DNA of 64,000 bases, from assembly GCA_027317185.1 (NCBI GenBank), contig DAHVFB010000007.1:1064-65063 (forward strand). The letters run 5' to 3'. Shown in pieces: positions 503 through 23,353 of this stretch. A model generated the notes under the pieces. The model was not told where the DNA came from. It saw only the letters and a list, made by a program, of their open reading frames with translations, and ran no database searches. A program made the position numbers and the translations under genes. This DNA is from Deltaproteobacteria bacterium (GTDB lineage Bacteria > Desulfobacterota > Binatia > Binatales > Binataceae). Numbering within the stretch: the stretch's first letter is position 1; the number at the start of each line of letters is the position of its first letter.

Positions 503-1831
<1,329 letters not shown>

Positions 1832-3951: not shown

Positions 3952-4050
3952 GTAACCGCTCTTCCTGACGGAATAGCCAATAACTCCTAAGGCAATGAAT
4001 TTGTCTTGGGAGTTTTTTTTGCTGCGTTTTGTCTGCGGAGAGGATGAAAA

Positions 4051-6252: not shown

Positions 6253-6283
6253 GCTGTTGATCATGCGTAGGGAGCTTTTTTTG
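6246..6283 (+). terminator. intrinsic terminator / expression platform of riboswitch 1
   Basis: CCCTAC-15 nt-GTAGGG stem followed by TTTTTTT. The 5' arm overlaps the CCUAC pseudoknot strand of the aptamer. Confidence 0.65.
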
Positions 6284-7690: not shown

Positions 7691-7715
7691 ACCGCGACAT
7701 GGAGGAACTTGGAGA

Positions 7716-8090
7716 GTGCTGGGAGTTTTGTTTGTCGCGATTGGCGGGGCCATCGGGTCGGCGACTCGTTATCTGGTGGGCGGATGGTTTGCATCCCGGT
7801 TTGGCCCGTCGTTTCCGTACGGAACCTTCGTGATCAATGTGACAGGGAGCTTCATTATTGGACTTTTCCTCGCATTTGCTCAGGAGCGGGTTTCGCTCAG
7901 CCCTTATTGGCGACTGTTCTTTGCGGTGGGCGTTGTCGGAGGCTATACTACCTTTTCGACCTTCGAGTATGAGTCGGTTCGATTGCTTCAGGATGGGGAG
8001 ATGCTGCTGGGGTCAGTTTATCTGGTAGGGAGCGTTGCGATGGGCGCTATCGGCGCCGTGGCCGGAATCACGCTTGGCAGTTGGATTTGA
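7716..8090 (+). CDS. crcB: fluoride ion channel CrcB/Fluc
   Basis: 124 aa, 4-TM. Motifs GGAIGSATRY and GGYTTFSTF are typical of CrcB. Confidence 0.9.
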   Translation: MLGVLFVAIGGAIGSATRYLVGGWFASRFGPSFPYGTFVINVTGSFIIGLFLAFAQERVSLSPYWRLFFAVGVVGGYTTFSTFEYESVRLLQDGEMLLGSVYLVGSVAMGAIGAVAGITLGSWI

Positions 8091-8110
8091 TTTCGCCGCC
8101 CAGATTCCAA

Positions 8111-8139
8111 TTGACAGTCGGACAGCGCCTGCTACACTT
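8111..8139 (+). promoter_or_regulatory. candidate sigma70 promoter (TTGACA-16-TACACT) upstream of riboswitch 2
   Basis: Hexamers read from the sequence. Weak -10. Confidence 0.25.
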
Positions 8140-8153
8140 CTATGGACAGCGTT

Positions 8154-8210
8154 GGTGATGGGGTTCACCGCCACAACCGCCCTTTCCTGAGCAGGGCTGA
8201 TAACCCCTAC
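8154..8210 (+). ncRNA. fluoride riboswitch (crcB motif), copy 2
   Basis: GGUGAUGGGGUUCACCGCCACAACCGCCC-uuuccugagc-AGGGCUGAUAACCCCUAC is a near-consensus crcB motif. P1 is GGUG/CACC, P3 is GCCCU/AGGGC, and the pseudoknot is GGGGUU/AACCCC. Confidence 0.85.
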
Positions 8211-8241
8211 CGAGGTGTACGCCGGTAGGGGTTGATTTGTT
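8204..8241 (+). terminator. intrinsic terminator / expression platform of riboswitch 2
   Basis: Perfect 9-bp stem CCCCTACCG / CGGTAGGGG with a 10-nt loop, followed by TTGATTTGTT. The 5' arm overlaps the pseudoknot strand. Confidence 0.7.
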
Positions 8242-8340
8242 CAGGTTCCCTACTTGGTCATTCGAAATCTCTCCCGATCAGCACTTTCCACGCGCTGAAG
8301 GGGAGAGATATAACGCCGCATGGAGTGAGCGTAGCGGAGG

Positions 8341-9291
8341 ATGGCGCGTTCGGTCGGGTTCAACCTGCTTCAAGTGCTGTTCGTTGTCGCGCTGGCTCCG
8401 CTGGCGTCGGGCGTGTTGTCGCGCCTGAAGGAGATCGTTCAATCGCGGCGCGGTCCCAGCATTTTTCAGCCCTATCGCGACCTTCGAAAGCTGTTCAACA
8501 AAGACGAAGTCGTTTCGGAACACGCTTCGTGGATCTTCCGGTTTACGCCGTATGTCGTGTTTGTCGCGCCGATCTTCGTGACCACGTTGATTCCGGTGCT
8601 TACGAACTATCCGCTCTTTTTCGCCTTCATGGGCGATATGCTGGGCGGTGGGTTTGTGCTCGCGCTGGGTGGGTTTTTCGCGACGCTCGCCGCCGTGGAT
8701 ACCGCTAATCCTTACGGTGCGATGGGCGCGAGCCGGACACGGATGGTCGGCTTCCTTGCAGAACCGGTCTTCATGATCGTTTTCTTTACGGTTTCGTTCG
8801 TGGCTGGTTCTACAATCCCCTACATCGTGCAGCAGCATTGGGTGACGCCGCTCACAAACTTTTTCGCGCCATCGCACGTGCTGCTGGTGATTGCGTTTAT
8901 CATGCTCATCCTCGCCGAGGCGGGCCGCATTCCGGTGGACAATCCGGCGGGCCATTTCGAACTCGCCATGATCGACGAATCGAAAAGCCTCGAGTATTCG
9001 GGTCCCGGCATGGCGCTGATGAAATGGGGCGGTCAGATGAAGCTGCTCGTGCTGATATGTATTCTGCTCAACGTGTTGGTTACACCGTGGGGACTTGCCG
9101 GCGGCCGGAGCACCGCCGAAGTCCTGCTGGCGGCGCCGCTGGTGCTGTTCAAGGTGGGGATTTTTCTACTCGTGCTGGTGGTGATTGAATCCTCGTTCGC
9201 TAAATTGCGGCTCTTTCGGGTCAGTGAGTTTCTGGGCGCTGCTTTCGTAACCTCGGTCGTCGCAATGATCACCGGGCTATTGAGCTTTTAG
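8341..9291 (+). CDS. membrane subunit of complex-I/hydrogenase-4 type (NuoH/HycD/HyfC-like)
   Basis: 316-aa polytopic protein with NuoH/HycD-family topology and conserved charged loops. Confidence 0.8.
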   Translation: MARSVGFNLLQVLFVVALAPLASGVLSRLKEIVQSRRGPSIFQPYRDLRKLFNKDEVVSEHASWIFRFTPYVVFVAPIFVTTLIPVLTNYPLFFAFMGDMLGGGFVLALGGFFATLAAVDTANPYGAMGASRTRMVGFLAEPVFMIVFFTVSFVAGSTIPYIVQQHWVTPLTNFFAPSHVLLVIAFIMLILAEAGRIPVDNPAGHFELAMIDESKSLEYSGPGMALMKWGGQMKLLVLICILLNVLVTPWGLAGGRSTAEVLLAAPLVLFKVGIFLLVLVVIESSFAKLRLFRVSEFLGAAFVTSVVAMITGLLSF

Positions 9292-9303
9292 CCGGAGAAT
9301 CAA

Positions 9304-9984
9304 GTGGCGAACTCAAACGCACTGTTGACCTCGCTGAACGGGTTGGCCGCGGGTCTGTTCCTTATGAGTTCATTCGGGCTGGCGGCAACCCGCCAGATGC
9401 AGGGGTGCCTGCGATTCTACATTACCCAGTCGATATGCCTGGTTGTGTCCGCACTATTACTCGGACTTGGTTTGCATGCTCCGGACTTGCTGGCGGTGGC
9501 CGTGCTCGACGCGGTCGTAAAGCCTATCGTGATCCCTGTGTTGCTTCGACGCACGGTACCCGAGGCGGTTTTTCGAAGACGCGAGATCGCTCAGGTGCTG
9601 AATATTCCCAGTTCGCTTCTGATCGCGCTTGCGCTGACTCTGTTGGCGTATTTCCTGAGCGGATATCTCCCGCCCGCCACGGGGAGCCTGGCAAGCATCA
9701 ATCTCCCGGTTGGCCTTGCCGGGCTATTCATCGGCGTTTACACGCTCACGGTCCGGCGGGAGGCGGTGCCTCAACTGATTGGAATCTTTGGCATCGAGAA
9801 CGGCGCTCTTCTTTGCGGCTTCGCGATTGCGTCTGGCCTGCCGCTGGTCATCGAGATGGCCTTCCCGTTCGACATGCTGATCATCGCGCTGGTGATCGGA
9901 ATTCTGACGCGGATGACGCACGAACGCGTTGGAACGACTGAAGTCGGCGGCTTCACCAGTCTTCGGGAAGGTATCGGCAAGTGA
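9304..9984 (+). CDS. small membrane subunit (HyfE / NuoK-like)
   Basis: 226 aa, about 7 TM. Position and hydropathy match HyfE-type subunits. Confidence 0.6.
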   Translation: MANSNALLTSLNGLAAGLFLMSSFGLAATRQMQGCLRFYITQSICLVVSALLLGLGLHAPDLLAVAVLDAVVKPIVIPVLLRRTVPEAVFRRREIAQVLNIPSSLLIALALTLLAYFLSGYLPPATGSLASINLPVGLAGLFIGVYTLTVRREAVPQLIGIFGIENGALLCGFAIASGLPLVIEMAFPFDMLIIALVIGILTRMTHERVGTTEVGGFTSLREGIGK

Positions 9985-11429
9985 TCCTCTTATTTATACT
10001 CGGCCTTCTGCTAATGGCCGCGTTGATTTCAGCGCTCCCGCTCGGTCGCCGTGTTGCGCCCGCTGTAACCGTTGCTACGTGTGTCGCCGTACTGGTGCTA
10101 ACGGTCGCGGCGGCGCTGCGAGTCGTGGCGGGAGAATCGGTGGTTACAATACGGAACTGGATCGCGATTGACGGACTGAGTGCGTTGATATTGCTGCTGG
10201 TGGCGACGGTGGGGAGCACAGCGGCTCTTTTTTCCTGGGGCTACATTGCTCGGGAGAAGAGTTCCCGTCATCTGCGCCGCTATTACGCGAATTACAACCT
10301 GTTTGTCTTCGCGATGCTCTCGGTGCCGATGCTGGACGAACCGAACCTGGTGTGGACCGGAGTGGAACTGACCACGATACTTTCTGTTTATTTGGTCGCA
10401 TTTGAAAATACCGGCGAAGCCCTGGAGGCGGCGTGGAAGTATTCAGTGCTCACGATCATGGGGGGAGCGATCGCTCTGCTTGGATTCCTCGCACTATACG
10501 CTGCGACGCGGGGCCGGTATGCGGAAGGGGCTTATACCTGGCGCACACTAATCGTGCTGGCGCCCGGCGTTTCGCCGCGCGTGCTCGAGACCGCGTTCGT
10601 TCTGATTCTCGTTGGGTTCGGGGCCAAGGCGGGGTTGGTTCCGTTGCATACGTGGCTGCCCGACGCGCATAGCCAGGCGCCGAGCCCGATATGCGCCCTG
10701 CTTTCCGGTATCAAGACAACCGTCATCCTGTACGTGATATTGCGCCTCATCCCAGTATTGAACTCGTCTGGAAAGATAGATGTCGACGAGTGGGCGATGG
10801 TCGTAGGATTGTTCTCGGTGGGTATCGCCGCGTTTCTGATTATTCAGGTGACTGACTATAAACGCCTGTTCGCATTCTCCACGGTCGAGCATATGGGAAT
10901 CATCCTGACCGCGGCGGGGATTGGCGGCGCCGCGGGTCATTACGGCGCCGTATATCAAATTCTCAATCACACGCTGACCAAGTCGTTTTGTTTTTTTGCG
11001 GCCGGGGCAACATTGCTCGCGGTGGACACGCGACAAATCGCGGACGTCCGGGGGCTGATACGAACCTCACCGCCGGCGGGCGTGGCCCTCCTGTTTGGGG
11101 GAATCGCGATCGCCGGCGCTCCGCCGCTCGCGGTCTTTCTGAGCGAATTTTCGATCCTGCGCTCAGGAATCGCGAAGCAACACTACGTTGCAACCGCTTT
11201 GCTCGCTGGATTCGTTATAGTCGCTTTTTTCGGCATTCTCTATCACCTTAACCGGATGGTCTTCGGGCAGCCAGACCCGGCAATCGAAAGCGCCGCTCCG
11301 ATAAGACTGCCGGTGAGTTGCGTACTGACCCTCATTCTGGCCGCGGCACCCATCATCATACTCGGGGTCTATATGCCAGAGCCGCTCCACAAGCTCCTTC
11401 TAATGGCTGCGGACGGTCTGACGAGGTGA
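9981..11429 (+). CDS. Mrp/NuoN-type antiporter-like subunit (HyfF/NuoN-like)
   Basis: WLPDAHSQAPSPICALLSGIKTT and other proton-pumping antiporter-family motifs. 482 aa. Confidence 0.85.
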   Translation: MILLFILGLLLMAALISALPLGRRVAPAVTVATCVAVLVLTVAAALRVVAGESVVTIRNWIAIDGLSALILLLVATVGSTAALFSWGYIAREKSSRHLRRYYANYNLFVFAMLSVPMLDEPNLVWTGVELTTILSVYLVAFENTGEALEAAWKYSVLTIMGGAIALLGFLALYAATRGRYAEGAYTWRTLIVLAPGVSPRVLETAFVLILVGFGAKAGLVPLHTWLPDAHSQAPSPICALLSGIKTTVILYVILRLIPVLNSSGKIDVDEWAMVVGLFSVGIAAFLIIQVTDYKRLFAFSTVEHMGIILTAAGIGGAAGHYGAVYQILNHTLTKSFCFFAAGATLLAVDTRQIADVRGLIRTSPPAGVALLFGGIAIAGAPPLAVFLSEFSILRSGIAKQHYVATALLAGFVIVAFFGILYHLNRMVFGQPDPAIESAAPIRLPVSCVLTLILAAAPIIILGVYMPEPLHKLLLMAADGLTR

Positions 11430-11432
11430 GCG

Positions 11433-13022
11433 ATGCCAGCCGAACGGAAGCAAGTGCTCGATGAGGTTGCGGCTCGTTGGAACGGCAGAGTTCAATTGAG
11501 CCCGGAAGACGGTTCGGAATCGGCTTATCGGCTGGAGTGTGAACCTGCGGAGCTATCGGAGGTTTGCAATTGGTTGTTCTCCGATCTGCATTACAGTTTC
11601 GGCGGTCTGGTAGTCGAGCAACTAACGCGGTGGGAACTGCGGTACGTATTCTATGGCGGGCCGGGAGCGGGCTGGTTGCATGTGCTGACTCATCTAGCTC
11701 CGTCGGATTATCGGGTGCCCAGCGTCAGCAGGCTCGTGCATGCGGCTGACTGGCACGAACGCGAGGTCGAGGACCTGTTCGGGCTGGTCTTCGAGGGGCA
11801 TCCGCGCCTCGGCGATTTCGTACTTCACGACGACGCCTGGCATGAGGGCGTCGCTCCGATGCGTAAGAGCTTCGATGGGCGCCAACCGGTGACGCATCGT
11901 GCGCCCGACCAGAACTGGAAGCCGCGCCAGATCGTCGAGGAGGCGGGAGCGTTCTTGATGCCGATCGGACCCATCTATGCCACCGCAACCGGGCCGGTGC
12001 ACTTTCAGCTTGAAACCGTGGGCGAAGATGTAATCCGCGTGCAGCCGCGCCTCTTCTATGCATACCGCGGGCTGGAAAAGATCGCCGAGGGGCGCCGGGC
12101 TGAGGACGTTCTACTGATAGCGGAGCGTATCAGCGCAACATCAGCATTCGCTCATTCACTCGCGGTCTGTCAGGCCGTGGAGCGTATCTGCCACATGGAG
12201 GTGCCTCCGAGAGCGCGCGCGCTAAGAATATTCGTTGCGGAGTTCGAACGCCTTCGGCATCACGTCGCGGCGATCGAGGGAATCTGTGAATCGACCGGCC
12301 TTGCGGTTGCAGCCGCCCAGGCCTCGATTCTCGAAGAGGACCTGCTGCGACTTTCCTGTGTGCTGACGGGGCATCGTTATCTCTTCGGCCTCGGAACCTT
12401 CGGTGGCTTGACGATCAACCTTGACGATTCGGCCTGCAACCGAGCCGCAGCACAGGTGCGAGAAGTGGCCGAAAAGCTCTCGCGCCTTGAGCGGATGTTG
12501 AGCATATCCAGCAGTTTTCTAGACCGACTGGAGGAGGTCGGCCACGTTTCCGCAGGCGAGGCCGGCGACTTCGGGCTGGTCGGACCGATCGCCCGCGCCT
12601 CAGGTGTCTCGCGGGATATGAGGAAGGCCCAGCCATATTCCGGCTATGACCAGATCGAGTTTGAGGTTCCCCACGAATCGGAAGGAGACGGATACGCACG
12701 GTTGCGTATGTTCTTTCGAGAGGCGGCGCAATCAGTGCGGATCATCTCGACGGTTGGCCAAGCGGTTCCTGGGGGGCAGGTTCGCGCGCCGGAAGTCAGC
12801 TTCAGGCCGGGTGCCGCGCTGGGCTGGGTCGAAGCACCGCGCGGGGCCGCGTTGCATTGGATTCGCCTCGGCGAGGACGGCGTGGTGGATCGCTACCGAA
12901 TCATCACGCCGTCATTCGCGAACTGGCATGGCTTCAGGCTCGCGGCCGAAAACTTTGCGTTTCAGGATTTTCCGATAATCCTCGCGACGTTCGCGCTCTC
13001 AGTTCACGAGAACGATCGCTAG
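11433..13022 (+). CDS. fused NuoC-NuoD-like 'large subunit' (HycE/EchE-like) lacking NiFe-binding cysteines
   Basis: N-terminal NuoC-like 150 aa plus a NuoD/[NiFe]-large-subunit fold. The L1 motif position reads RISATSAFAH and the L2 position TPSFANWH, so both Cys pairs are replaced. Confidence 0.85.
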   Translation: MPAERKQVLDEVAARWNGRVQLSPEDGSESAYRLECEPAELSEVCNWLFSDLHYSFGGLVVEQLTRWELRYVFYGGPGAGWLHVLTHLAPSDYRVPSVSRLVHAADWHEREVEDLFGLVFEGHPRLGDFVLHDDAWHEGVAPMRKSFDGRQPVTHRAPDQNWKPRQIVEEAGAFLMPIGPIYATATGPVHFQLETVGEDVIRVQPRLFYAYRGLEKIAEGRRAEDVLLIAERISATSAFAHSLAVCQAVERICHMEVPPRARALRIFVAEFERLRHHVAAIEGICESTGLAVAAAQASILEEDLLRLSCVLTGHRYLFGLGTFGGLTINLDDSACNRAAAQVREVAEKLSRLERMLSISSSFLDRLEEVGHVSAGEAGDFGLVGPIARASGVSRDMRKAQPYSGYDQIEFEVPHESEGDGYARLRMFFREAAQSVRIISTVGQAVPGGQVRAPEVSFRPGAALGWVEAPRGAALHWIRLGEDGVVDRYRIITPSFANWHGFRLAAENFAFQDFPIILATFALSVHENDR

Positions 13023-13040
13023 TAGGTACGGCTAACCATC

Positions 13041-13811
13041 ATGAGCCAATGGGTAATCAAGGGTCTCAGAACCGGCGTTAAGAGCACCCGCTACCCGCGC
13101 GCCGAGGAAACTGCGGCTGGAATTTCGCCGGGCCTGCCGACTGCCGCGACACTCCCCTTGGAAGTGGCCCAGTCACTCGTGGCGCGTTGTCCGGCCGACG
13201 CTCTTGAACTGGCTCCGGCCGGCGTGGACGTGAACCTGCGCCGATGTATTCACTGCTTCCGCTGCGTGCGTGGCACGAACAGTCCGCTCGGATGGGAACA
13301 CAGCTACGAATGGGCCACCGCAGTTTCGGGTGGCAATGATCAAAAGCGGCAGTTCGGTCCGGCGTTCGATCGATCGGTTCACATCCTCGTGGTCGATACA
13401 GGCGACTGCGGGGCGTGCCTGAACGAGGTCCGACAGCTCAACAATCCCTACTACAACATGCATCGCCTCGGCTTCTTTCTCACTCCAACGCCACGTCATG
13501 CCGATGTGTTGCTGGTAGTCGGAGCGCTGACCGACCACATGCGAGTGCCGCTGCGCAAGGCCTACGACGCGATGCCCAGCCCGAAACGGGTCGTAGCCGT
13601 TGGGGCCTGCGCGCTATCGGGAGGAATCTTTGGCCGCAGCTTTATGTGCGCAGGCGGAGTGGCCGAGCTGCTCCCGGTCGATGTCGAGGTGCCGGGCGAT
13701 CCGCCACCGCCACTCGCGATTCTGCACGGACTGTTGGTTGCGGTTGGCCGGAAACCCCCGGCCCGTTTGCATCGCGCAGTGAGCGACTCGGTGGGGAACG
13801 CGTCGGGATGA
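13041..13811 (+). CDS. NuoB/HycG-like small subunit with N-terminal ferredoxin-like CxxCxxC segment
   Basis: C-terminal HILVVDTGDCGAC .. GACALSGG .. VPGDPPPP follows the NuoB pattern, with the 4th Cys replaced by Asp. The N-terminus has CIHCFRC. Confidence 0.8.
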   Translation: MSQWVIKGLRTGVKSTRYPRAEETAAGISPGLPTAATLPLEVAQSLVARCPADALELAPAGVDVNLRRCIHCFRCVRGTNSPLGWEHSYEWATAVSGGNDQKRQFGPAFDRSVHILVVDTGDCGACLNEVRQLNNPYYNMHRLGFFLTPTPRHADVLLVVGALTDHMRVPLRKAYDAMPSPKRVVAVGACALSGGIFGRSFMCAGGVAELLPVDVEVPGDPPPPLAILHGLLVAVGRKPPARLHRAVSDSVGNASG

Positions 13812-15958
13812 CCTCCATGGGCCTGCTACTGGTCATTATCGTGGCGCTGTGCGGCGCCGGCGTGGTTTTGCCGCTGGCCATTGAAGAACGGCGAACGCCA
13901 GCGATCGTGGGCTGGTTCGGAGCGTGCGCGGCGGGCGTCTTGCTCTGCTTCAGCGGAGCCTCACTGTTTGCGGGCGCGCCGTTTCACGCGACGCTGTGGA
14001 CCATTCCATCGCTGGCGACGCTCACGCTGTCACTCGACCGGCTCTCTGCGCTGTTTCTTTTTATTTCAGGCCTGGTCCTGCTTCCCGGTTCGATTTTCGC
14101 GGCTGGCAATCTCCATAGGTACATGGGCCGTTACAGTCTTAGGGCCTTTAGCGTTCTATATTTCGCGCTCTATGCGACGCTGGTGCTGATTCCCCTGTCG
14201 GCCGACGCGGTCTCCTTTCTGATGTTGTGGGAATCGATGTCGATCCTGATCTACCTGCTGGTGAACTACGAAGACGAAATGGAAGAACACCTGCGGGCGG
14301 GATACTTGATGCTGGCGGTTGGCGAGGCCGGCACACTCCTCATCGCGCTGGCGTTCATAGTACTCGCCAATAATGGCTCGCTTGAATTCGTCGCGATGGA
14401 GGCTGGGGGAGGTGCGCTGGGCGAATACGCGCGATGGGCTGTCTTCCTGCTCGCGTTCTTCGGCTTCGGAGTCAAGGCCGGTCTCATCCCGGTTAATTTC
14501 TGGCTCCCGCAGGCGTACGCCGCGGCGCCGGATGCTTTCGTCCCGGTGCTGGCTGGAGCAACCTTGAACCTCGGTCTTTACGGAATCGTCAGAGTGAACG
14601 GTGACCTGCTGCCGGTTGCGGCGATCGGCCCCGGCCTCGTCGCGCTCATCGTCGGCAGCGTTACCGCGCTGCTCGGCATTCTCTACGCGACGACGCAGAG
14701 CGATCTCAAGACCATGCTCGCGCACAGTTCGATCGAGAATGCCGGCATTATCACAGCGGCGCTCGGCGCGGGGTTTATCTTCGTGGCCTTGGCGCATCCG
14801 TCGCTTGCGGCGATCGCGTTTGCGGCGGCCTTCTACCACATGGTGAACCATTCGATTTACAAGGCCCTGTTGTTCTTCGCGACCGGCGCGGTTGATTCGA
14901 ATACCGGAACCCGAAACATCGACCGGCTGGGAGGCTTGATAAAGGCGATGCCTCTCACCGCGTTGTTCTTTCTGGTTGGCGCACTGTCGATCGCGGCGCT
15001 GCCGCCGTTCAACGGATTCGTTAGTGAATGGCTCACGTTGCAGGCGATGCTGCAAAGCGCGGGACTTGCTTCGACTGGCGTGAAAATCGTCTTTGCGCTT
15101 TGCGGCGCGATCCTCGCCCTGACGGCGGCGCTTGCGGTGACCTGCTTCGTTAAGGCGTTCGCGATGAGTTTCCTCGGGATGCCACGGTCTGATTCGGCGG
15201 CGCAGGCCCGGTCGGCGCGAGCCTCGGCGACTATTCCGATGGCATTCCTCGCCGTGCTCTGCTTCATCCTGGGAGTGACTCCGACCTACGTCATTCCGGT
15301 GCTCGACGGAGCTATCGCGCCGATCGCGGAGCAGGCGCGCGCCGCCGACGCCCTGGTGCCACCCTTCTTTGCTGGCAACGTCCATCACGGCGAGCTGCCC
15401 GCATCCTTCGTCGCGGATTTTCACGCGCTTGGCGCGCAAGTCGGGCAGAGCGTAATGCCGGGACGTGGACTCATTGTGATGCATCGCGGCGGCGCGGCCA
15501 ATCCGGTGGTGTTCGCGATGTCCACCACGTACATGGCCGTGGTCCTGGCGCTGATGCTGCTCGCTACCTACGTCGTGTTTCGATTGATTGTCGCGCGAAG
15601 CCGCGCCGTCGAACGGCGCGCGGTCTGGGATGGTGGAATCCGACGCTTGCTGCCGGAGATGACCTACACCGGTACCGGATTCTCGAACCCGGTGCGCGTC
15701 ATCTTCGAAGCGGTATTCAGGCCCACAACCGTGGAAGACACCCGGGAGACGGTCGGCAAGCATTTCCGGGCCGCGATTCGGCGCACGCACGGCGAAAACC
15801 ATGTGCTGGACCGCTTGGTGCTCAATCCGATCGCGGACGCCGCGCTATGGGTATCAAACGGTTTTGCCCGGATGCATCATGGCTTCCTCAATGCCTACGT
15901 TCTCTACGGGCTCATCGCGCTGATTGTGGCGCTTCTGATCGCGAGGTTCTCCTCATGA
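13808..15958 (+). CDS. Mrp/NuoL-type antiporter-like subunit (HyfB/NuoL-like)
   Basis: About 717 aa polytopic protein with FWLPQAYAAAPDAFVPV and HSSIENAGII motifs. Start taken at MTSMGLL (the ATGA overlap with the upstream gene), not the long Arg-rich N-extension in the ORF track. Confidence 0.85.
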   Translation: MTSMGLLLVIIVALCGAGVVLPLAIEERRTPAIVGWFGACAAGVLLCFSGASLFAGAPFHATLWTIPSLATLTLSLDRLSALFLFISGLVLLPGSIFAAGNLHRYMGRYSLRAFSVLYFALYATLVLIPLSADAVSFLMLWESMSILIYLLVNYEDEMEEHLRAGYLMLAVGEAGTLLIALAFIVLANNGSLEFVAMEAGGGALGEYARWAVFLLAFFGFGVKAGLIPVNFWLPQAYAAAPDAFVPVLAGATLNLGLYGIVRVNGDLLPVAAIGPGLVALIVGSVTALLGILYATTQSDLKTMLAHSSIENAGIITAALGAGFIFVALAHPSLAAIAFAAAFYHMVNHSIYKALLFFATGAVDSNTGTRNIDRLGGLIKAMPLTALFFLVGALSIAALPPFNGFVSEWLTLQAMLQSAGLASTGVKIVFALCGAILALTAALAVTCFVKAFAMSFLGMPRSDSAAQARSARASATIPMAFLAVLCFILGVTPTYVIPVLDGAIAPIAEQARAADALVPPFFAGNVHHGELPASFVADFHALGAQVGQSVMPGRGLIVMHRGGAANPVVFAMSTTYMAVVLALMLLATYVVFRLIVARSRAVERRAVWDGGIRRLLPEMTYTGTGFSNPVRVIFEAVFRPTTVEDTRETVGKHFRAAIRRTHGENHVLDRLVLNPIADAALWVSNGFARMHHGFLNAYVLYGLIALIVALLIARFSS

Positions 15959-15971: not shown

Positions 15972-16961
15972 GTGCGGCTAGACTTAGCTTATGGGTACAG
16001 GTGGTGGAGTCCACCAGGAACCGCCATCCGGCCAATGACTCCTGCAGCGGGTAGAGACCCGCGGCGGGAGGACTCCTTCCGACTCTCGGGTCTCGAGACC
16101 GCTCCGACGATTGTTGATCGGAGACCGGAAGTGCTCGAGCGCCTGACAAAGAATTTCCGAGAACTCCTCAAGCAGTTCGGTGGCGCCTCGTGCTCCCTGT
16201 GCGCCGTATTGAAACGGCGGGAGGAAGAGGAAATCGAGCGAGTGCGCGCTAGCAGTGCCTCGGCCAGAGTCTTGTGCGGCCCGCATCTCGAGATGGTGCT
16301 GTTCGCGGTTGCCAGCCCGATGACAAGGGCGGGAGTGACTCGCAGTGCGATCGAATCGGTCCTCGCCGACCGATCCGATTGCGACGCGTGCTCAAGGCTC
16401 AGCCAAATCGAGCTTAGGCTTGCACGCGCGATCCGCCGTTTGGACGGCGGGATGCGCTTCAGGAAGGCGCTCGAATCGGCGCCGCTTTTCTGCCGCAAGC
16501 ATGCGGATATCGTCGCGCAACAGGATGTCGCGGTTAACTTTGCACAGGTTCAGAGGGCGAAGCTCCTCCACTTACGCGATGCGCTCGCTCAGGCCGAGTT
16601 GCGTAACGGCGCAGAGATGGAATCGCTGATATTGACGGCGCTCACCTATCTGGCCGCTCCTCTTCAGCAAGAACCGCCGCCGGTGGAAGTCCACGATTCC
16701 TCCGATTGCACGGAGAACGAGGCGGCGGAATTCGAGCGATGGGAGGAAGCACGCCAGTTCAAGCATCTGGCCGACCTCGAGAGCGAAGCGGCAGGCCTGC
16801 GCTATCGCAACGCCGTGCTTTCTGAAGAGAACCGCAGACTCAAGCTCGCCCATGTCGCTGGCGAAGCGATCCGGCGCGACCTTGAGCACGATCGAGCACA
16901 GCTCCTCGCCGCGGCGAAGGAACAGGATGCAAAACCGCTGAAGTTTTCGAGCCGACATTAA
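15972..16961 (+). CDS. hypothetical protein with two CxxC-(26-31 aa)-CxxH modules and a C-terminal coiled coil
   Basis: CSLC..CGPH and CDAC..CRKH. First gene of the overlapping-stop operon. Start codon uncertain. Confidence 0.5.
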   Translation: MRLDLAYGYRWWSPPGTAIRPMTPAAGRDPRREDSFRLSGLETAPTIVDRRPEVLERLTKNFRELLKQFGGASCSLCAVLKRREEEEIERVRASSASARVLCGPHLEMVLFAVASPMTRAGVTRSAIESVLADRSDCDACSRLSQIELRLARAIRRLDGGMRFRKALESAPLFCRKHADIVAQQDVAVNFAQVQRAKLLHLRDALAQAELRNGAEMESLILTALTYLAAPLQQEPPPVEVHDSSDCTENEAAEFERWEEARQFKHLADLESEAAGLRYRNAVLSEENRRLKLAHVAGEAIRRDLEHDRAQLLAAAKEQDAKPLKFSSRH

Positions 16962-16979
16962 AAAGAGCCAATCACTCAT

Positions 16980-17675
16980 ATGCGAATCTGCATCATTTCA
17001 GACCTGCACGCGAACCTCGAAGCTCTTTCCGCCCTGCCACGCGACTATGATGAGTTGTGGGTATTGGGTGACCTGGTGAACTATGGTCCTGATCCGGCCG
17101 AAACGATCGACTTTGTGCGATCTCACGCGTCAACTGTCATCCGCGGAAACCACGACAACGCGGTGGGATTTGGAACGAATTGTGGGTGCTCGCCTCGATT
17201 CCGCACTATGGCCGAAGCGACGCGCCAATACACGACGTCGGTCCTGAGTGCTAGAGACAAACAGTTTCTTAGGGAGCTACCGACATGCGCCTGCCGCCAG
17301 GTCGACGGGCGGATATTCTTTCTCTGCCACGCGACTCCATCGGATCTGCTCTATGAGTACCGCGCGCCCGACTCGCCGCTGTGGGCGCGGGAAGAGGAGT
17401 CCAGTTCGGGAGCGAATGTCATCCTGGCGGGACACACACATCTGCCGTTCGCGCGCGTCTTTGGCGAACGTATCGTCGCTAATCCAGGAAGCCTTGGACA
17501 ATCGAAAGCAGGAGACCCGCGCGCCCGCTACGCCGTCTGGCAGGATGACCATATTGAGCTAAAGGCCTACGAATATCCCGTCGACAAGACGGTCGAGAAA
17601 ATCTTGGCGCTTCCGTTACCCGAGGAAGTAAAGCACGACCTCGTCTGCGTGCTTCGTACGGGGACAGCGCCGTGA
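16980..17675 (+). CDS. metallophosphoesterase (calcineurin-like, YfcE/MJ0936-type)
   Basis: DLH .. GDLVNYGP .. GNHD .. GHTH motifs. Confidence 0.85.
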   Translation: MRICIISDLHANLEALSALPRDYDELWVLGDLVNYGPDPAETIDFVRSHASTVIRGNHDNAVGFGTNCGCSPRFRTMAEATRQYTTSVLSARDKQFLRELPTCACRQVDGRIFFLCHATPSDLLYEYRAPDSPLWAREEESSSGANVILAGHTHLPFARVFGERIVANPGSLGQSKAGDPRARYAVWQDDHIELKAYEYPVDKTVEKILALPLPEEVKHDLVCVLRTGTAP

Positions 17676-18667
17676 GTACCAATAGTCATCGAAACACCGC
17701 TCCGGAGCCGGCTGCGATCACGGCTGACGCCGTAAAACTAGGCGATCTGAGACATCACCTCCGATCGCTGCACGATGGAGACGGCGCGGTGATTGAGGCA
17801 ATCGGCATCGGCGCTCCAGCGATTCCGGTCCTGCGGGAACTCCTGTTTGAGCGAGATCCCAGCGGGATTTTCGAGCCGCGGATGCGTGCCGCTCAGGCGC
17901 TGGCCGCGCTCAGAGCCACGAGCGAATTGCAGGAGTTTGTCCGCGAATGGAAATCGGCTTCGGACCCAGTCGAGCGGTTTGGAGACGAAGCGGTGCTGGG
18001 AGCCGTCGCCAGATTTTTGGGCGCCACGATGGAAGAAGACGTCTATGACATCCTGATGGCGATCGGCCGAAAGTATCCGGTGCCGGGCGTTATCGAAGCC
18101 TTAGGGCGATATGGCCGTTCGGAATCGGTTTCAATGATGCTCAGAGCCCTTGCCGATGACATCAGCCGGACCGCGGCGGAACAGGCATTAAGGATCCTCG
18201 GCGAGGCGGGAGTTCCCGCGCTCATCGAGGCCGCCATGCGGCCGGTCGCGAATTTTTGGGGCAGAGAAATTCCATCCAGTGTGCTTAGGCGGCGCAGCGC
18301 GTTAATGCTGCTGCTAGAATTTGGTGTTACGCGCGATACTTGGGACCGCATCCGCAGGTTGGTATCAGACTCAGACGACGAAATTTCGGTCCGTGCATGC
18401 GCAATTGGATTGACGGCGGGCATTCGTGCAGACCAGCGCGACTGCGCGTGGCGGATGTTGGAGTTACTGCGCGGGGTCGCGTGGCCGCTTCATCAGGAAA
18501 TCGAAAACTGCCTGATAGACAATTTCGCAATCGCTCGGGAGTTCGTCGATCAGGCTATCAAAGGACCGACGGACGACATCGCGGATGACTTCGCGCGCGC
18601 CCGATTCAAGCGATCACTCCGTCGGATCGCGGCAAGGGCGTTAACCAGACAGGAGCCCGGGAGTTGA
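17672..18667 (+). CDS. HEAT-repeat (PBS-lyase-like) protein
   Basis: Repeated approx. 30-aa helical repeats with (A/V)(A/R)xALG motifs. Overlaps its neighbours by 4 nt. Confidence 0.65.
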   Translation: MSTNSHRNTAPEPAAITADAVKLGDLRHHLRSLHDGDGAVIEAIGIGAPAIPVLRELLFERDPSGIFEPRMRAAQALAALRATSELQEFVREWKSASDPVERFGDEAVLGAVARFLGATMEEDVYDILMAIGRKYPVPGVIEALGRYGRSESVSMMLRALADDISRTAAEQALRILGEAGVPALIEAAMRPVANFWGREIPSSVLRRRSALMLLLEFGVTRDTWDRIRRLVSDSDDEISVRACAIGLTAGIRADQRDCAWRMLELLRGVAWPLHQEIENCLIDNFAIAREFVDQAIKGPTDDIADDFARARFKRSLRRIAARALTRQEPGS

Positions 18668-21165
18668 CCTCGATGCCGGAAGCAGCGCCGCAGCTCTCCA
18701 ATATCGCGGGTGACGCACTCCGCCACTATGACCATCTCAAACTCGAGATTGCGGCGATCGGGCAAGCGGCGATGCTTCAGTGCGCGAAGGATAAGGACGA
18801 GGAAGGCGAACGCGCTTTCCAGCGGTTGCTGGCGCGATTGGCGGAGGACCGCTTCAACCTTGCTGTGGTGGGTCCTTTCAGCCGGGGTAAGAGCAGCCTG
18901 ATGAACGCAATTCTCGGCTTCGATGGTTTGCCGACCGGCCTTCTTCCGCACACTTCCGTTATCACGACGGTCAGTTATGGACCACACGAACGAGTTCTGG
19001 TTCGCTGCGAGGGGTGGTCGCTTCCCCAGGAGATTCGACTGGATGGGCTCGCGGAGTACGTTACTGAACGCGGAAATCCGGGAAATCGGCGGCGGGTGAT
19101 GCAGGCGGAGATCGAACTGCCCGCTGAGATTCTCCGCCACGGCCTCCATTTCATCGATACGCCCGGTGTTGGTTCCGCGATCGTTGCAAACACCGAGACA
19201 ACGGACCGATTCCTCCCGGAGCTTGATGCGGCGATATTCGTCTCCAGTTTCGATTTTCCGCTCAGCGAGATCGATATCGAGTTTTTCCGAAAGGTTCGCG
19301 GGGCCGTCGGCGTCGTGTTCTTGGTGCTGAACAAACTTGATCTGGTCTCGGAGTCAGAGGCAGAAGAAGTAGTGAGATTCGTCCGCGAACGGCTCGACCG
19401 TGAACTGGGTATTGGGCGCTACGCGCTTTTCGCGGTTTCAGCCAAGCGCGGGTTAGAGGCGAGACTGCATGGAGACTCGAACGCTCTGTCCCAGTCGGGG
19501 TTGACCGAATTGGAAGCGGCGCTGGCGGCGTTCATGGCCGGCGATAAGACGCGCCAGTTGGCCGTGCGCGTGATGGACCGCCTCGTAACCCTGCTGCAAC
19601 GCGAGGTCACGCATGGCGGGTTCTCACTTGATCCAAAGCGGTCGCCTGGGCAGGTCTCCCAAGCCCTCGCCGGGTTCGATGAAAAGACGGCCGTCCTCAA
19701 AGCGCGGCGCGCGGAGCTCGTGAACCGCCTTGAAACGCTTGGCAATGATGCGTTGCGTGCCGTTGAGCGTCGTCTCGACTCCGCGTTCACGAACCTCAAG
19801 CAAAGCGCAGCTCATAAATTCACGCCGGACTTTCTCGCCGGTCGAATATTCTCCAGGCCGAATGCCTTCGATGCGTTCGCGCGCAATGTGCCGGCGTTTT
19901 GTGAGCGCGCTCTCACGCGCGAGTTACGAGTTTACGAGGCAGCCCTGAATGAGCATTTGGACCGGAGCGCCGGTCCGGTACGCTCGGAAATCCTTGCGCT
20001 ACCCGACGAACTCTTCGATATCGCGACGAATGGTAACGGAGGCGCTCGCGAGTTATCAGAGCTCTCCGCACAAGAGCGCGAAGCCGCACCACCATCGGTG
20101 GAAATCGCAGGGATCGCACGCGTCGAGTGGAGACCGCGGCTGCCGTGGTGGATATACCTGGCGCCACTGCGCTGGTCTTCGGCGGCGATGAAAAGAACAT
20201 TTGCCGTTGCGCTCGGCGAGTTGCTCGCGCAGTACCGATCCCGCATCGATGCGTCGATCCGCATCGACATGAACGAATATGCGGAGAAACTGGGCCGCGA
20301 GATTGAAAAAACAATCGACGGTCGAGCGGCTCGCGTCAGGAAATTACTCGCGTCGGGAGGTTTCGCACAGAATCGCAAGGTGTTCGAAGCGCTGCTGGAT
20401 CGGGCCAGAGATCTGCGTGGACAATTTGAAGATAAGGGAGACTGCCGATCGCGGTCTGAGGAGGGCGACCTCGGTGGCTCCGACGCAGTCGCTGCAAGTT
20501 CCGTGGCTTCCGTCGGCAGTGCGCATGGGTGTCCCGTCTGTCGTGCAGTCATCCGGACAGTTTTCGATTACCTGAGCAAGCTGCAATATGAATTGAGCAT
20601 CGACGCCGACGCTCAACACGAACACGCCGAAAGCGGCGGCTTCTGTTCAGTACACACGTGGATTTACTCCAGTATGACCTCGCCGGTAGCAATCTCGCGG
20701 GCCTATCCGCCACTGCTTGACTCGCTTGCCACGCGGCTGAAACGTGCCGCGCGTGATGCGGTCTCGGTCGAAGAACTGAACCGGAAAATCCGCGATCTAT
20801 CGCCTTCGCCGGAGAGCTGTAGAGTCTGCGCGGTCGCGCATCACGCGACCGATCAAGCGGTCACGGATATCGTCCGGATTCTCGACCCAGACGGACGCAG
20901 CGAGGCGCCGACCTTATGCTTGCCTCACTTGGCGATTGCACTTCAGCTCGGATCAGATTTGAAGAGCGCCCATCTGCTATCCACACAATGTGCGCGCGCT
21001 CTGCTCCGGGATGCCGATGACATGCGCCATCACGCTCTGAAGCACGACGCGATCCGGCGAGGCCTGATGACGACGGACGAGCGTGATGCGCATCAGGCCG
21101 GCCTCAGAAGATTGGCCGGCAACATGCTGCTGACATTGCCACCCCGTGGTGATGATCGGCTTTGA
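18664..21165 (+). CDS. bacterial dynamin-like GTPase with C-terminal double Cys3His module
   Basis: G1 GPFSRGKSSLMNAILG, G3 FIDTPGVGS, G4 LNKLD. C-terminal CPVC..CSVH and CRVC..CLPH. Confidence 0.8.
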   Translation: MTSMPEAAPQLSNIAGDALRHYDHLKLEIAAIGQAAMLQCAKDKDEEGERAFQRLLARLAEDRFNLAVVGPFSRGKSSLMNAILGFDGLPTGLLPHTSVITTVSYGPHERVLVRCEGWSLPQEIRLDGLAEYVTERGNPGNRRRVMQAEIELPAEILRHGLHFIDTPGVGSAIVANTETTDRFLPELDAAIFVSSFDFPLSEIDIEFFRKVRGAVGVVFLVLNKLDLVSESEAEEVVRFVRERLDRELGIGRYALFAVSAKRGLEARLHGDSNALSQSGLTELEAALAAFMAGDKTRQLAVRVMDRLVTLLQREVTHGGFSLDPKRSPGQVSQALAGFDEKTAVLKARRAELVNRLETLGNDALRAVERRLDSAFTNLKQSAAHKFTPDFLAGRIFSRPNAFDAFARNVPAFCERALTRELRVYEAALNEHLDRSAGPVRSEILALPDELFDIATNGNGGARELSELSAQEREAAPPSVEIAGIARVEWRPRLPWWIYLAPLRWSSAAMKRTFAVALGELLAQYRSRIDASIRIDMNEYAEKLGREIEKTIDGRAARVRKLLASGGFAQNRKVFEALLDRARDLRGQFEDKGDCRSRSEEGDLGGSDAVAASSVASVGSAHGCPVCRAVIRTVFDYLSKLQYELSIDADAQHEHAESGGFCSVHTWIYSSMTSPVAISRAYPPLLDSLATRLKRAARDAVSVEELNRKIRDLSPSPESCRVCAVAHHATDQAVTDIVRILDPDGRSEAPTLCLPHLAIALQLGSDLKSAHLLSTQCARALLRDADDMRHHALKHDAIRRGLMTTDERDAHQAGLRRLAGNMLLTLPPRGDDRL

Positions 21166-21215: not shown

Positions 21216-22424
21216 ATGGATGGAAGACCGGCGCCGGCTGTTCGGAAAATCGAAACCGCCGACTCGCGTGCGACGTGGTTTAACCGCAACGTCGCGGGTA
21301 TGTGCCTGGCGAGTCTGCTCTCCGATCTGGGACATGAGATGGCAACCTCGATCCTGCCGCTGTTCCTGACCGCGATTGGAGCATCGCCTTCGGCGCTGGG
21401 GATTATTGAGGGCGCGTCGGATGGAGCCGCGACGTTCGCCAAACTGATTGGCGGCAGGATCGCAGACCGCAAGGGCTTGCGCCAAAAGGTTGCAAGTCTC
21501 GGATACCTGGTCACCGGTCTCGCGACAGGATCATTCGCGGCGGCGATGACTTGGTTTGAACTACTGATCGCGCGGACTGTGGGATGGTTTGGCAGGGGGA
21601 CACGCGGGCCGTCGCGCGACAATCTTCTGGTTGATTCGGTACCCCACGCGAAGGTCGGCGCGGCGCTGGGGCTTCACCGAACCGCCGACACTCTGGGAGC
21701 GATCTTGGGGCCGCTGACCGCGATGTTCCTTCTCCATCGAATCGGATTCCGCAACATCTTCCTGCTGAGTCTCGTGCCTGGCGTGTTCGCCGCCGCGGCG
21801 TTCTACTTCCTTGTGCGCGAACCCGATGGCGCAAACTTGGCACAAGCGCCGGAGTTTCGAGGCTGGCACGCGGCGCTGCCCTCCTCCTTCCGGACGTTTC
21901 TCGCGACGATTCTACTGTTTGGAATCGGAGACTTCGCGCACAGCATGCTGGTGCTTCGGGCTGCACAACTGCTCGGATCGACACCCAAGGCAATGAGCAT
22001 CGCGATCGGTTTATACGTCATTCACAACACGGCGCATGCGGCTTTGTCTTATCCGATAGGAGTTACAGGCGACCGCATCGAGCGTCGGCGCCTGCTCGCG
22101 GTTGCTTATGTGATCGCGGCGGTCGCCGCGGCTGGCTTCGCCATCGGACCACACAGCGTAGGTGCGCTGGTGGTGCTCTTCATTCTCGAAGGCGCCGTAA
22201 TGGCTGCTCAGGAAACGCTCGATTCGGCCGTGGCGACAGATCTTCTGCCAGCCGACTCGCGCGGCGCGGGATTCGGCGTAATGAATGCCACAAGCGGCGT
22301 CGGCGACTTCGTGTCGAGCATTGTCGTCGGATTTCTTTGGACTGGCATATCCGGCCATGCCGCATTTGCGTATAGCGCAACCTTGAGCTTGCTGGCCGCG
22401 GCATTGATGACCTGGGGGATCTGA
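21216..22424 (+). CDS. MFS transporter
   Basis: 12-TM profile with D-R-x-G-R-R/K-like loop motifs (GGRIADRKG). Confidence 0.85.
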   Translation: MDGRPAPAVRKIETADSRATWFNRNVAGMCLASLLSDLGHEMATSILPLFLTAIGASPSALGIIEGASDGAATFAKLIGGRIADRKGLRQKVASLGYLVTGLATGSFAAAMTWFELLIARTVGWFGRGTRGPSRDNLLVDSVPHAKVGAALGLHRTADTLGAILGPLTAMFLLHRIGFRNIFLLSLVPGVFAAAAFYFLVREPDGANLAQAPEFRGWHAALPSSFRTFLATILLFGIGDFAHSMLVLRAAQLLGSTPKAMSIAIGLYVIHNTAHAALSYPIGVTGDRIERRRLLAVAYVIAAVAAAGFAIGPHSVGALVVLFILEGAVMAAQETLDSAVATDLLPADSRGAGFGVMNATSGVGDFVSSIVVGFLWTGISGHAAFAYSATLSLLAAALMTWGI

Positions 22425-22442: not shown

Positions 22443-22937
22443 GTGATAAGGAGAATGAATTCCTTTTGCTGGAACTGCTTCCAAATGATCGATAGCGACG
22501 ACACGCTGTGCCCCTATTGCGCGCGGCAGCAACACCCGGTACCGGGCGATCTTCGCGAGAAGCTGATTCGAGCGCTTAAGCATCCAATAGGAGAGACACG
22601 AAGACGGGCGTCATTCGTACTTGGAGAGAAGCGAATGAGCGAAGCCGCGACCAACCTTATCGACCTCGTCGAGCACGATCCCGACCTCTATGTGGCCGCT
22701 GAAGCAGTTACGGCGTTGGAAAAAATCGGGACTCCGGACGCGCTGTATGGAATTGAGCGTGCGGCTTCGCACGAATCATTCGTCGTCCGGGAACGTGCCG
22801 TCGAAGCGCTCGTGGCGGCCGGCGGTGAGTGGGCGGATGCAGCGAGCGAAATAGCAGAAAACGACCCCAGTCCGTCGGTCAGAGAAGCCGCGCAAAGCAA
22901 CCCTGCGAAAAAGGACCCCTTGGCTCGCCATCTGTGA
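22443..22937 (+). CDS. zinc-ribbon plus HEAT-repeat protein
   Basis: N-terminal CWNC..CPYC. HEAT-like repeats (E.RRRA.FVLG, AAEAVTALEKIG, VRERAVEAL). Confidence 0.6.
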   Translation: MIRRMNSFCWNCFQMIDSDDTLCPYCARQQHPVPGDLREKLIRALKHPIGETRRRASFVLGEKRMSEAATNLIDLVEHDPDLYVAAEAVTALEKIGTPDALYGIERAASHESFVVRERAVEALVAAGGEWADAASEIAENDPSPSVREAAQSNPAKKDPLARHL

Positions 22938-22968: not shown

Positions 22969-23353
22969 GATGCGCGCAGTTGAGGACGCGGTAATCGAGA
23001 TAGAGCGCGCGCTCGATCCAGCGGCGCAAGCTCCCCGGCGCGTGATGACCGAGTATCAGAACGACCTCCCCGACTCGGCAAGATGTGCGATGCGGGCGAA
23101 GCTCGGGGAGATTCGTGCAGAAATCCAAGATGCGAAGGATTGCTATGATTTGTACGCCGACACTGTTTCTAATCGTCGGCGTCTCTCGACCAAGTTGTCG
23201 ATTCTCGCGATTGATTTGACCGACTGCAGACCAGCGTATATGCGCGGCTACGGGGAGGTGCCGGATGAAGAGCGTCAGCCGCTTGACGAGCGAATGTCAC
23301 GACTGGAGGCGATGGTTAATGCTCTAAACAGAATGCTTACATCGCACGAATGA
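22969..23353 (+). CDS. hypothetical helical protein
   Basis: ORF with balanced composition. No motif. Confidence 0.3.

Follow-up and report, generated by a model that had tools for sequence, protein, structure and literature searches.

What does a bacterium do with a dynamin-like GTPase that is encoded together with a HEAT-repeat protein, a metallophosphoesterase (MPE) and a cysteine-rich protein? This question is raised by the locus at positions 15972–21165 (+ strand) of a 64,000-nt stretch of DNA from a Deltaproteobacteria bacterium of the family Binataceae (assembly GCA_027317185.1, contig DAHVFB010000007.1; hereafter the window), in which four long open reading frames (ORFs), all on the + strand, are tightly packed. 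A preliminary description, based on the DNA letters and the translated ORFs, had read these four co-directional genes (g1–g4) as a possible system for membrane remodelling, repair or defence, and the genes proved to be real and conserved. However, it had overlooked an RNA switch: a fluoride riboswitch sits inside what had been translated as gene 1. On the strength of the sequence data presented below, we predict with high confidence that this riboswitch controls the operon and that the operon is a member of the fluoride regulon. The best explanation of the locus, which we consider on balance probable, is a fluoride-inducible operon for membrane maintenance or remodelling that lies inside a fluoride island of approximately 23 kb.

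The aptamer (crcB motif, RF01734; the coordinates of all features are listed in Table 1) matched the full Rfam model (positions 1–64) with 42.0 bits (gathering score 34, E = 2.9e-08), and a covariance model built in the course of this work (R1, see below) scored it at 60.8 bits. It lies on the same strand as the operon, within the 172 nt that separate g1 from the upstream gene (which ends at 15958), and 80 nt remain between the aptamer end and the g1 start. Gene 1 had previously been taken as coding from 15972, but its 55 homologues, which are approximately 275 aa long, align only from residue 54 of this over-long ORF; the start of g1 was therefore assigned to GTG 16131, which is preceded by a GGAG 7 nt upstream, and the first 159 nt of the former gene 1 (15972–16130) are, judging from the alignment, non-coding. 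Riboswitches were found at the equivalent site before the g1 orthologue in nine related loci (L005, L006, L008, L009, L010, L011, L014, L020 and L052). Covariation was assessed in 147 distinct riboswitch sequences from all the loci analysed, using an alignment fitted to the riboswitch model, which favours the structure: 94.8% of the cells were paired compared with 81.6% in shuffles and 30–79% in slid controls, and seven of the eight pairs of stems P1 and P2 had changed on both sides. The minimum-free-energy fold of the leader additionally contains a GC-rich hairpin in which the 5' arm (CUCCUGC) shares nucleotides with the aptamer's 3' pseudoknot strand. Such competing structures are usual for the fluoride riboswitch class, and the hairpin is a candidate terminator or sequestering stem that, in the folding model, would compete with the ligand-bound fold.

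Related loci were collected by scanning one genome per GTDB species, which gave 259 confirmed dynamin relatives, and 80 loci were kept; the counts given here refer to 82 loci, in all of which ORFs were called and searched with the window proteins and the neighbouring genes were clustered. The clue to the riboswitch scan came from a Paraburkholderia locus with a CLC transporter and CrcB beside the dynamin. Using Rfam, fluoride riboswitches were detected in six of the seven loci tested first, including sites directly ahead of the g1 orthologues of L011 and L020. Model R1 was built from 12 Rfam-confirmed aptamers and used to search the window and 81 loci (1.4 Mb, E ≤ 0.01), which yielded 215 hits, with at least one in 72 of the 82 loci; in nine further loci, 25 of the R1 hits were confirmed when Rfam was run again at the gathering score. 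A same-strand riboswitch was located upstream of the dynamin gene, without an opposite-strand labelled gene in between, in 67 loci, and directly upstream of it in 25. Among the 15 loci without a preceding riboswitch, seven have less than 2.3 kb of upstream sequence. With F denoting the fluoride riboswitch and DYNC the dynamin, the recurrent units were F>DYNC (25 loci), F>CYS>MPE>HEAT>DYNC (8 loci plus 2 that had been mis-sorted by ORF over-extension, the window being one), F>CMAS>DYNC (6 loci), F>Eno>DYNC (4 loci), F>MPE>Eno>DYNC (3 loci) and F>Dyn688>HEAT>DYNC (2 loci). A CMAS-type lipid methyltransferase was co-transcribed with the dynamin in at least ten loci (e.g. F>CMAS>DYNC and F>MPE>CMAS>HEAT>DYNC), extra dynamin paralogues were found behind riboswitches of their own, and cultured Paraburkholderia carry the unit riboswitch>CLC>MFS>dynamin adjacent to a crcB gene that is itself led by a riboswitch. 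Some loci are unusually dense multi-riboswitch islands: positions 1–21620 of the Mesorhizobium composti locus L072 (NZ_SSNY01000003.1) contain ten riboswitches by R1 and ten at the Rfam gathering score, and the Paraburkholderia and Ancylobacter loci have eight riboswitch hits each.

In the window itself, five riboswitch hits fall within the first 23 kb, a fluoride-response island that also encodes CrcB, enolase and a hydrogenase-like complex (Table 1), and R1 gave zero riboswitch matches in the part from 24 to 64 kb. The known classes of fluoride-riboswitch genes are exporters, enolase, pyrophosphatase, antiporters, formate-hydrogen-lyase-like genes and mutS-like genes (PMC11139923; PMC2864571; PMC7266159). 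The S-adenosylmethionine (SAM) synthetase and the YkoP-domain protein, which follow one of the riboswitches of the window, are not among the classes named in the reviews consulted. In the complex that ends just before the leader of g1, the large subunit no longer has either of the NiFe-binding CxxC motifs (R-I-S-A-T-S-A-F-A-H stands at the N-terminal site, and the C-terminus, ...ALSVHENDR, is cysteine-free), and the small subunit has PGDPP in place of the usual PGCPP. As far as can be read from the proteins, this complex is therefore Ehr-like, a relative that translocates ions rather than a functional hydrogenase or formate hydrogen lyase.

Table 1. Features of the first 23 kb of the window, in order of position.
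Feature	Position (nt)	Strand	Basis and remarks
Enolase	503–1828	-	led by riboswitch 3739–3811
AAA_16 protein	1957–3717	-	led by riboswitch 3739–3811
Riboswitch	3739–3811	-	R1, 40.9 bits
Riboswitch	3927–3996	+	R1, 36.6 bits; leads YkoP-domain protein and SAM synthetase (MetK)
Weak riboswitch match	6188–6257	+	R1, 24.2 bits; leads DUF190/CBS protein and CrcB homologue
CrcB homologue	~7671–8087		led by weak match 6188–6257
Riboswitch	8145–8216	+	Rfam, 47.3 bits (gathering score 34), model 1–64; leads the seven-gene complex
Seven-gene Ehr/Hyf-like membrane complex	8341–15958		led by riboswitch 8145–8216
Large and small subunits of the complex	11433–13022 / 13041–13811
Fluoride riboswitch aptamer (crcB motif, RF01734)	15991–16051	+	Rfam cmscan; in the leader of g1–g4; leads g1–g4, MFS transporter, Zn-ribbon/HEAT protein and sp26
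GC-rich hairpin, candidate expression platform	16039–16070	+	minimum-free-energy fold of 15985–16145
g1, helical protein (276 aa); two Cys3His sites, C-terminal coiled coil of ~75 residues	16131–16961	+	homologues, AlphaFold2 (AF2)
g2, binuclear MPE, Metallophos_2/YfcE-like superfamily	16980–17675	+	Pfam PF12850
g3, 331-aa HEAT-repeat solenoid	17672–18667	+	Pfam HEAT_2
g4 (DynC), 830-aa BDLP/IniA/mitofusin-class dynamin-like GTPase	18673–21165	+	Pfam, PDB profile search, AF2, Foldseek
MFS transporter	21216–22424	+	Pfam MFS_1, 143 bits; starts 50 nt past the dynamin
Small protein with N-terminal Zn-ribbon (CxxC...CxxC) and HEAT_2 repeats	22443–22937	+	HEAT_2, E = 5.5e-22
sp26, small conserved protein	22970–23353	+	ORF from 22829; start ATG 22970 inferred from translation

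The dynamin-like GTPase, designated DynC, is the gene by which the loci were recognised, and its earlier identification as a dynamin-family large GTPase with intact motifs is borne out by a Dynamin_N (PF00350) match of 75.5 bits (cut-off 27) and by the invariance of G1 (GxxxxGKS), G3 (DTPG) and G4 (NKxD) across a 17-sequence alignment (G70/G75/K76, D165-T-P-G168 and N223-K-x-D226). A PDB search with a profile of 17 homologues, the alignment of which reached g4 residue ~470–516, returned the bacterial dynamin-like protein (BDLP) of Nostoc (2j68, 5.4e-32), the dynamin-like proteins (DLPs) DLP1/2 of Campylobacter (5owv, 3.5e-29) and IniA (6j72, 1.5e-22). The AF2 model (pLDDT 75.5), which has long helices at 295–590, was matched by Foldseek over 600–700 columns to IniA first (6j72, 3e-17), then to BDLP (5.5e-17) and next to mitofusins. 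Along the model, the GTPase domain comes first, then the helices of the neck and trunk, a Trp-rich stretch that is not helical, a disordered linker (591–620) and a separate C-terminal helical domain; alignment and model place a conserved Trp-rich loop (about residues 485–505, with W..PWW..L.P.RW at about 489–505) between the trunk helices. From these data we predict with good confidence that g4 is a true membrane-active DLP. A second DLP gene or a fused second DLP module was not present in the operon of the window.

The preliminary description had also missed that the C-terminus of the dynamin holds the same Cys3His domain as g1. Two Cys3His sites are invariant in this domain across the 17 sequences (C623, C626, C661, H664 and C719, C722, C752, H755, counted from TTG 18664); the sites probably bind Zn, or may alternatively hold an Fe-S cluster. 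Compared with Pfam DUF6062 (PF19538), the domain scored 17.6 bits, which is below the gathering score of 27. A word-indexed search with the isolated domain gave 2 proteins and was replaced by an exhaustive search, in which the family comprised 921 clusters at 50% identity, falling into length classes of ~810–885 aa and ~530–620 aa (dynamins) and ~200–370 aa (stand-alone proteins or fragments). The subfamily to which the dynamin belongs is a large one, with 948 matches among the 8000 candidates scored.

In g1, described earlier as a Cys3His protein, the ligands of both CxxC...CxxH motifs (C21, C24, C49, H52 and C84, C87, C121, H124) are indeed invariant in 18 homologues. The AF2 model is all-helical (pLDDT 85) and ends in a conserved C-terminal helix of ~75 residues, and a Foldseek search of the PDB with it found no significant match (best E = 0.31). 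Against Pfam, nothing scored above threshold (PF19538, 13.9 bits, gathering score 27); 16 of the 18 family members matched PF19538 at E ≤ 0.1 (best, 1.4e-6), and by these profile scores g1 ranks as a distant DUF6062 relative that is not a member by the Pfam rule. The name DUF6062 was found in no paper of the searchable literature. An hhalign comparison of g1 with the C-terminal domain of g4 gave a probability of 91.7% (E = 7.9e-7), by which g1 is a stand-alone paralogue of that domain; the Cys3His domain thus occurs both fused and separate. The possibility that g1 is a remnant of a second, 688-aa dynamin was rejected, since BLASTP showed zero similarity. The gene is the least conserved of the partners: the 68%-identical relative L001/L007 (metagenome-assembled genome (MAG) contig_33362) has neither the Cys3His gene nor the riboswitch ahead of it; its MPE, HEAT and dynamin genes come 93 nt after an Ehr-like complex, and its sole upstream riboswitch precedes this complex. 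Judging from this locus, the Cys gene and its riboswitch appear to have been gained or lost together.

The identities given earlier to g2 and g3 also held. The calcineurin-like phosphoesterase g2 matched PF12850 (Metallophos_2) with 75.7 bits (cut-off 27) and the NCBIfam YfcE subfamily (TIGR00040) with 48.4 bits, below the cut-off of 56.25; the catalytic and metal motifs DxH, GD, GNHD and GH can all be read from the translation, and among solved structures the uncharacterised 3rqz comes closest (E = 8.8e-25). The HEAT-repeat protein g3 matched HEAT_2 with 33.7 bits (cut-off 27.7) and gave zero matches among PDB sequences. The junctions between the genes differ from the chain of 4-nt ATGA overlaps proposed before, as ATGA is found at none of the three: 18 nt separate the g1 stop (16961) from the g2 ATG (16980), g2 and g3 overlap by GTGA (17672–17675), and g3 and g4 overlap by TTGA only if TTG 18664 is the start of g4. 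In the 93%-identical homologue P0001 and in others, the aligned start is the equivalent of ATG 18673, which follows a Shine-Dalgarno sequence (GGGAG, 8 nt upstream) and leaves a g3/g4 spacer of 5 nt.

Beyond 21165, the transcription unit probably continues into the genes for the MFS transporter, the Zn-ribbon/HEAT protein and sp26. No terminator was predicted between the dynamin and MFS genes, and the MFS gene abuts or overlaps the dynamin stop codon in the closest relatives; promoter and terminator scans, both near the leader and downstream of the dynamin, were uninformative. The Zn-ribbon/HEAT protein, encoded between the MFS transporter and sp26, is the second HEAT protein of the same probable transcript. 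For sp26, Pfam gave zero matches; it is a homologue of the N-terminal ~140 residues of a 688-aa dynamin paralogue from other loci (phmmer E = 2e-5 to residues 11–145 of Dyn688 of L002), and a member of its cluster lies downstream of the dynamin in 13 loci. sp26 is thereby a second accessory domain in this system that is either fused to a dynamin or separately encoded.

The preliminary description had named two findings that would speak against a system of its own, namely that the genes do not occur together outside this genome and that they belong to a system already known. In fact, the exact order Cys-protein, MPE, HEAT and dynamin was found in nine Binatia-type loci, down to approximately 42% dynamin identity, and neither a characterised family nor a PADLOC defence system claims the locus. 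In many of the loci the genes are also tightly coupled. Carriers belong to at least six phyla and comprise Binatia-type MAGs (the closest to the window), Acidobacteriota, Chloroflexota, Actinomycetota, and Alpha- and Betaproteobacteria, with Paraburkholderia, Mesorhizobium composti, Rhodopila globiformis and Ancylobacter as cultured carriers. The most widely conserved partner near the dynamin is the HEAT protein (38 of the 82 loci), followed by MutS-domain-V protein pairs (33), enolase (30), the MFS transporter (30), the MPE (24, in several phyla), hydrogenase-like subunits (16–17), an AAA_16 ATPase (14), sp26 (13), the CMAS-type lipid methyltransferase (12) and inorganic pyrophosphatase (12). 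Two further dynamin types, of 688 aa and ~600 aa, recur near DynC, and the arrangement Dyn688-HEAT-DynC is frequent in Acidobacteriota. The MutS-related pairs are tandem proteins of ~520–600 aa that contain MutS domain V only (e.g. L002, 14321–17466) and often belong to the riboswitch-led unit of the dynamin; the association of mutS-like genes with fluoride riboswitches has long been known and is unexplained (PMC2864571). The named carriers come mostly from acidic soils, peat and lichens (Acidobacteriaceae, Acidiferrales, Sulfotelmatobacter, Rhodopila, Trebonia, Ktedonobacteraceae and Binataceae), which fits an uptake of hydrogen fluoride (HF) that is worst at low pH; MAG sampling may alternatively be behind this pattern.

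How the operon might serve membrane maintenance can be outlined as follows. At low F-, the hairpin of the leader would form and limit expression, as expected from the known working of this riboswitch class, and when cytoplasmic F- rises the aptamer would fold around F-/Mg2+ and the downstream genes would be expressed. The dynamin would then assemble on the cytoplasmic membrane through the Trp-rich loop at its trunk tip and, driven by GTP, tether, seal or reshape a membrane that is stressed by HF influx and acidification and also by envelope defects following the inhibition of enolase and phosphoryl transfer, a role modelled on the stress-induced IniA and DynA. The HEAT protein could act as an adaptor or scaffold for the dynamin, g1 could dock on, or compete with, the C-terminal domain of the dynamin and so tune its assembly, and the phosphoesterase could provide a fluoride-relevant phosphoryl-hydrolase activity. 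The co-transcribed CMAS-type lipid methyltransferase fits a membrane role of the dynamin. Taken by itself, the idea that the dynamin maintains or remodels membranes during fluoride stress, drawn by analogy, is tentative and somewhat more likely to be wrong than right. Of the roles that the preliminary description had offered, remodelling or repair stays the best guess, now tied to fluoride/HF stress, while defence does not. A more far-reaching version, which we regard as clearly unlikely, is a fluoride-stress membrane machine in which riboswitch-run dynamin paralogues, a retromer-like pair of HEAT and Vps29-like proteins, Cys3His adaptors and the lipid methyltransferase rebuild or shed membrane against HF entry or package fluoride out; here, the G-domain dimer might lock with GDP-metal-fluoride, which would make the dynamin a direct protein-level fluoride effector besides a riboswitch target.

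Several observations weigh against an operon for membrane maintenance under riboswitch control. Since no canonical U-tract follows the hairpin at 16039–16070 and the terminator scan of the leader was empty, the switching mechanism is at this locus one that we infer only. Eight loci with ample upstream sequence have no riboswitch ahead of the dynamin, so that the link between the two is strong and not obligatory, and in three of these eight (L024, L044 and L046) riboswitches are absent throughout the locus. The Trp-rich loop is the only basis on which a candidate membrane paddle can be placed at the trunk tip. Finally, the regulon is rich in Mg-dependent phosphoryl-transfer enzymes and NTPases (enolase, pyrophosphatase, MutS-V, AAA_16, MPE and dynamins), a make-up that fits the replacement or over-production of fluoride-sensitive enzymes, with no membrane role, equally well. 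The dynamin would then be a fluoride-sensitive, Mg/metal-dependent phosphoryl-transfer enzyme itself, made under fluoride stress in extra, tolerant or metal-fluoride/GDP-soaking copies. Metal fluorides mimic the transition state in GTPases, all GTPase motifs of the dynamin are intact, and its neighbours fit (enolase, pyrophosphatase, MutS_V pairs, AAA_16 and MPE at the frequencies given above, and three dynamin types). However, dynamin-like proteins are not known as essential housekeeping enzymes in need of back-up, and compensation of this kind accounts neither for the dedicated partners (HEAT, the Cys3His paralogue and sp26) nor for the C-terminal metal domain, nor for the lipid methyltransferase, which is co-transcribed and points to the membrane. 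Enolase and pyrophosphatase provide a precedent, as accepted cases of making more of an inhibited enzyme (PMC11139923). We consider this account of the dynamin rather unlikely, but it is the main competitor.

The position of the operon behind the Ehr/Hyf-like complex suggests a different task, in which the dynamin and its partners would be an insertion, maturation or organising factor for that complex. In the 16–17 loci mentioned, which belong to several phyla and groups including Binatia, Paraburkholderia, Hyphomicrobiales, Actinomycetota and Acidobacteriota, hydrogenase-like genes are found no more than 8 kb from the dynamin, and in L007 the MPE-HEAT-dynamin genes trail the complex and lack a separate riboswitch. 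Yet approximately 65 of the 82 loci have the dynamin with no such complex nearby, a separate riboswitch precedes the dynamin unit in the window and nine relatives, NiFe maturation would be needless for a large subunit without both NiFe CxxC motifs, and the similarity to HydF and maturation GTPases is merely generic, all of which makes this task very unlikely. DynA and LeoABC-type dynamins have been linked to phage resistance, and an anti-phage defence system of the dynamin type (Eleos/LeoABC-like) was the remaining candidate; PADLOC matched the dynamin weakly, with 55.5 bits for LeoA and 33.1 bits for LeoBC, and the C-terminal domain weakly matched the candidate system PDC-S70 (E = 0.0018). 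The PADLOC matches reflect the shared GTPase fold only, though, and the combination of LeoA with a LeoBC-type partner was not found, no second component being detected at the locus. Profile searches of the window revealed no defence genes, integrases or phage genes in the flanks, PHROGs searches were null for the dynamin, HEAT and Cys proteins, and this type of locus sits behind fluoride riboswitches in 67 of the 82 loci. Because the riboswitch lies inside the former gene 1 and the operon in a multi-riboswitch fluoride island, a role in anti-phage defence is extremely unlikely.

Compared with described systems, the operon combines parts of known kinds, as both the fluoride riboswitch and the BDLP-class dynamin are, in a way that is apparently undescribed: this applies to the subfamily of dynamins with a Cys3His tail, to its HEAT, MPE and Cys3His partners and to its systematic placement behind fluoride riboswitches. 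Literature searches for dynamin with HEAT and metallophosphoesterase, or with MutS and enolase, returned nothing relevant. In the searchable literature, no paper was found in which 'riboswitch', 'fluoride' and 'dynamin' occur together; these GTPases may have been listed earlier among the 'other' riboswitch-associated genes of Baker et al. 2012. As noted in the preliminary description, the partner set (HEAT, MPE and Cys3His protein) is unlike those of DynA, LeoABC and BDLP pairs. IniA of the Mycobacterium iniBAC operon and DynA of Bacillus subtilis share with g4 the BDLP/mitofusin-class architecture and with this locus a chemical-stress-responsive operon and a presumed role in membrane fission, fusion or repair. 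Here, in contrast, the predicted inducer is fluoride acting through an RNA switch, g4 adds a C-terminal double Cys3His domain, the partners are HEAT, MPE and a Cys3His/coiled-coil protein with no IniB or IniC, and the DLP is single and neither fused nor paired. The BDLP of Nostoc and DLP1/DLP2 of Campylobacter are the nearest solved sequence relatives (2j68 and 5owv); many of the related loci likewise pair DynC with a 688-aa DLP, the HEAT gene lying in between, whereas the window has only sp26, and the C-terminal metal domain and riboswitch control of DynC are absent from the described BDLP and DLP1/DLP2 pairs. LeoABC/Eleos has in common with g4 the dynamin-family GTPase fold, which is reflected in the weak PADLOC matches, and differs in its partners, and the locus of the window is outside a defence island and under a fluoride riboswitch. 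The translational coupling of an MPE gene to a HEAT gene, in what may be a membrane-remodelling context, is also reminiscent of the retromer pair Vps29-Vps35, a Metallophos_2-fold protein and a HEAT-like alpha-solenoid. Vps29 has lost its catalytic motifs, whereas g2 keeps them, and homology of g3 to Vps35 is not part of the likeness. The closest resemblance in regulation is to the fluoride riboswitch 'super-regulon', which has the same RF01734 element in the 5' leader and the same companion genes, namely crcB/Fluc, CLC-F, enolase, pyrophosphatase, Na+/H+ antiporters, formate-hydrogen-lyase-like complexes and MutS-related proteins (PMC11139923; PMC2864571; PMC7266159); the reviews consulted name no dynamin-like GTPases, HEAT partner, MPE of this type or DUF6062-like Cys3His proteins.

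Fluoride responses are understood mainly as export (Fluc and CLC-F) and as extra copies of inhibited enzymes, and the DynC subfamily, whose signature domain comprises 921 clusters and which is found with conserved partners behind fluoride riboswitches in at least six phyla, points to an unstudied, membrane-level part of tolerance to fluoride and acid soil. For bacterial dynamins, whose physiological triggers are mostly unknown, the operon would provide a defined and easily applied inducer, and Paraburkholderia, Mesorhizobium composti, Rhodopila globiformis, Ancylobacter and Lichenicola are available in culture as test organisms. The system is also relevant to engineered fluoride tolerance for organofluorine degradation. 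In Lichenicola cladoniae, the locus (L085) is on a 150-kb plasmid (NZ_CP053712.1), where, in the region 8045–11111, the gene for a 541-aa 'dynamin family protein' points away from a crcB with a riboswitch leader and from a universal stress protein gene and is surrounded by IS630, IS6 and IS1380 transposases, a setting of plasmid and insertion sequences (IS) that suggests that the module moves horizontally.

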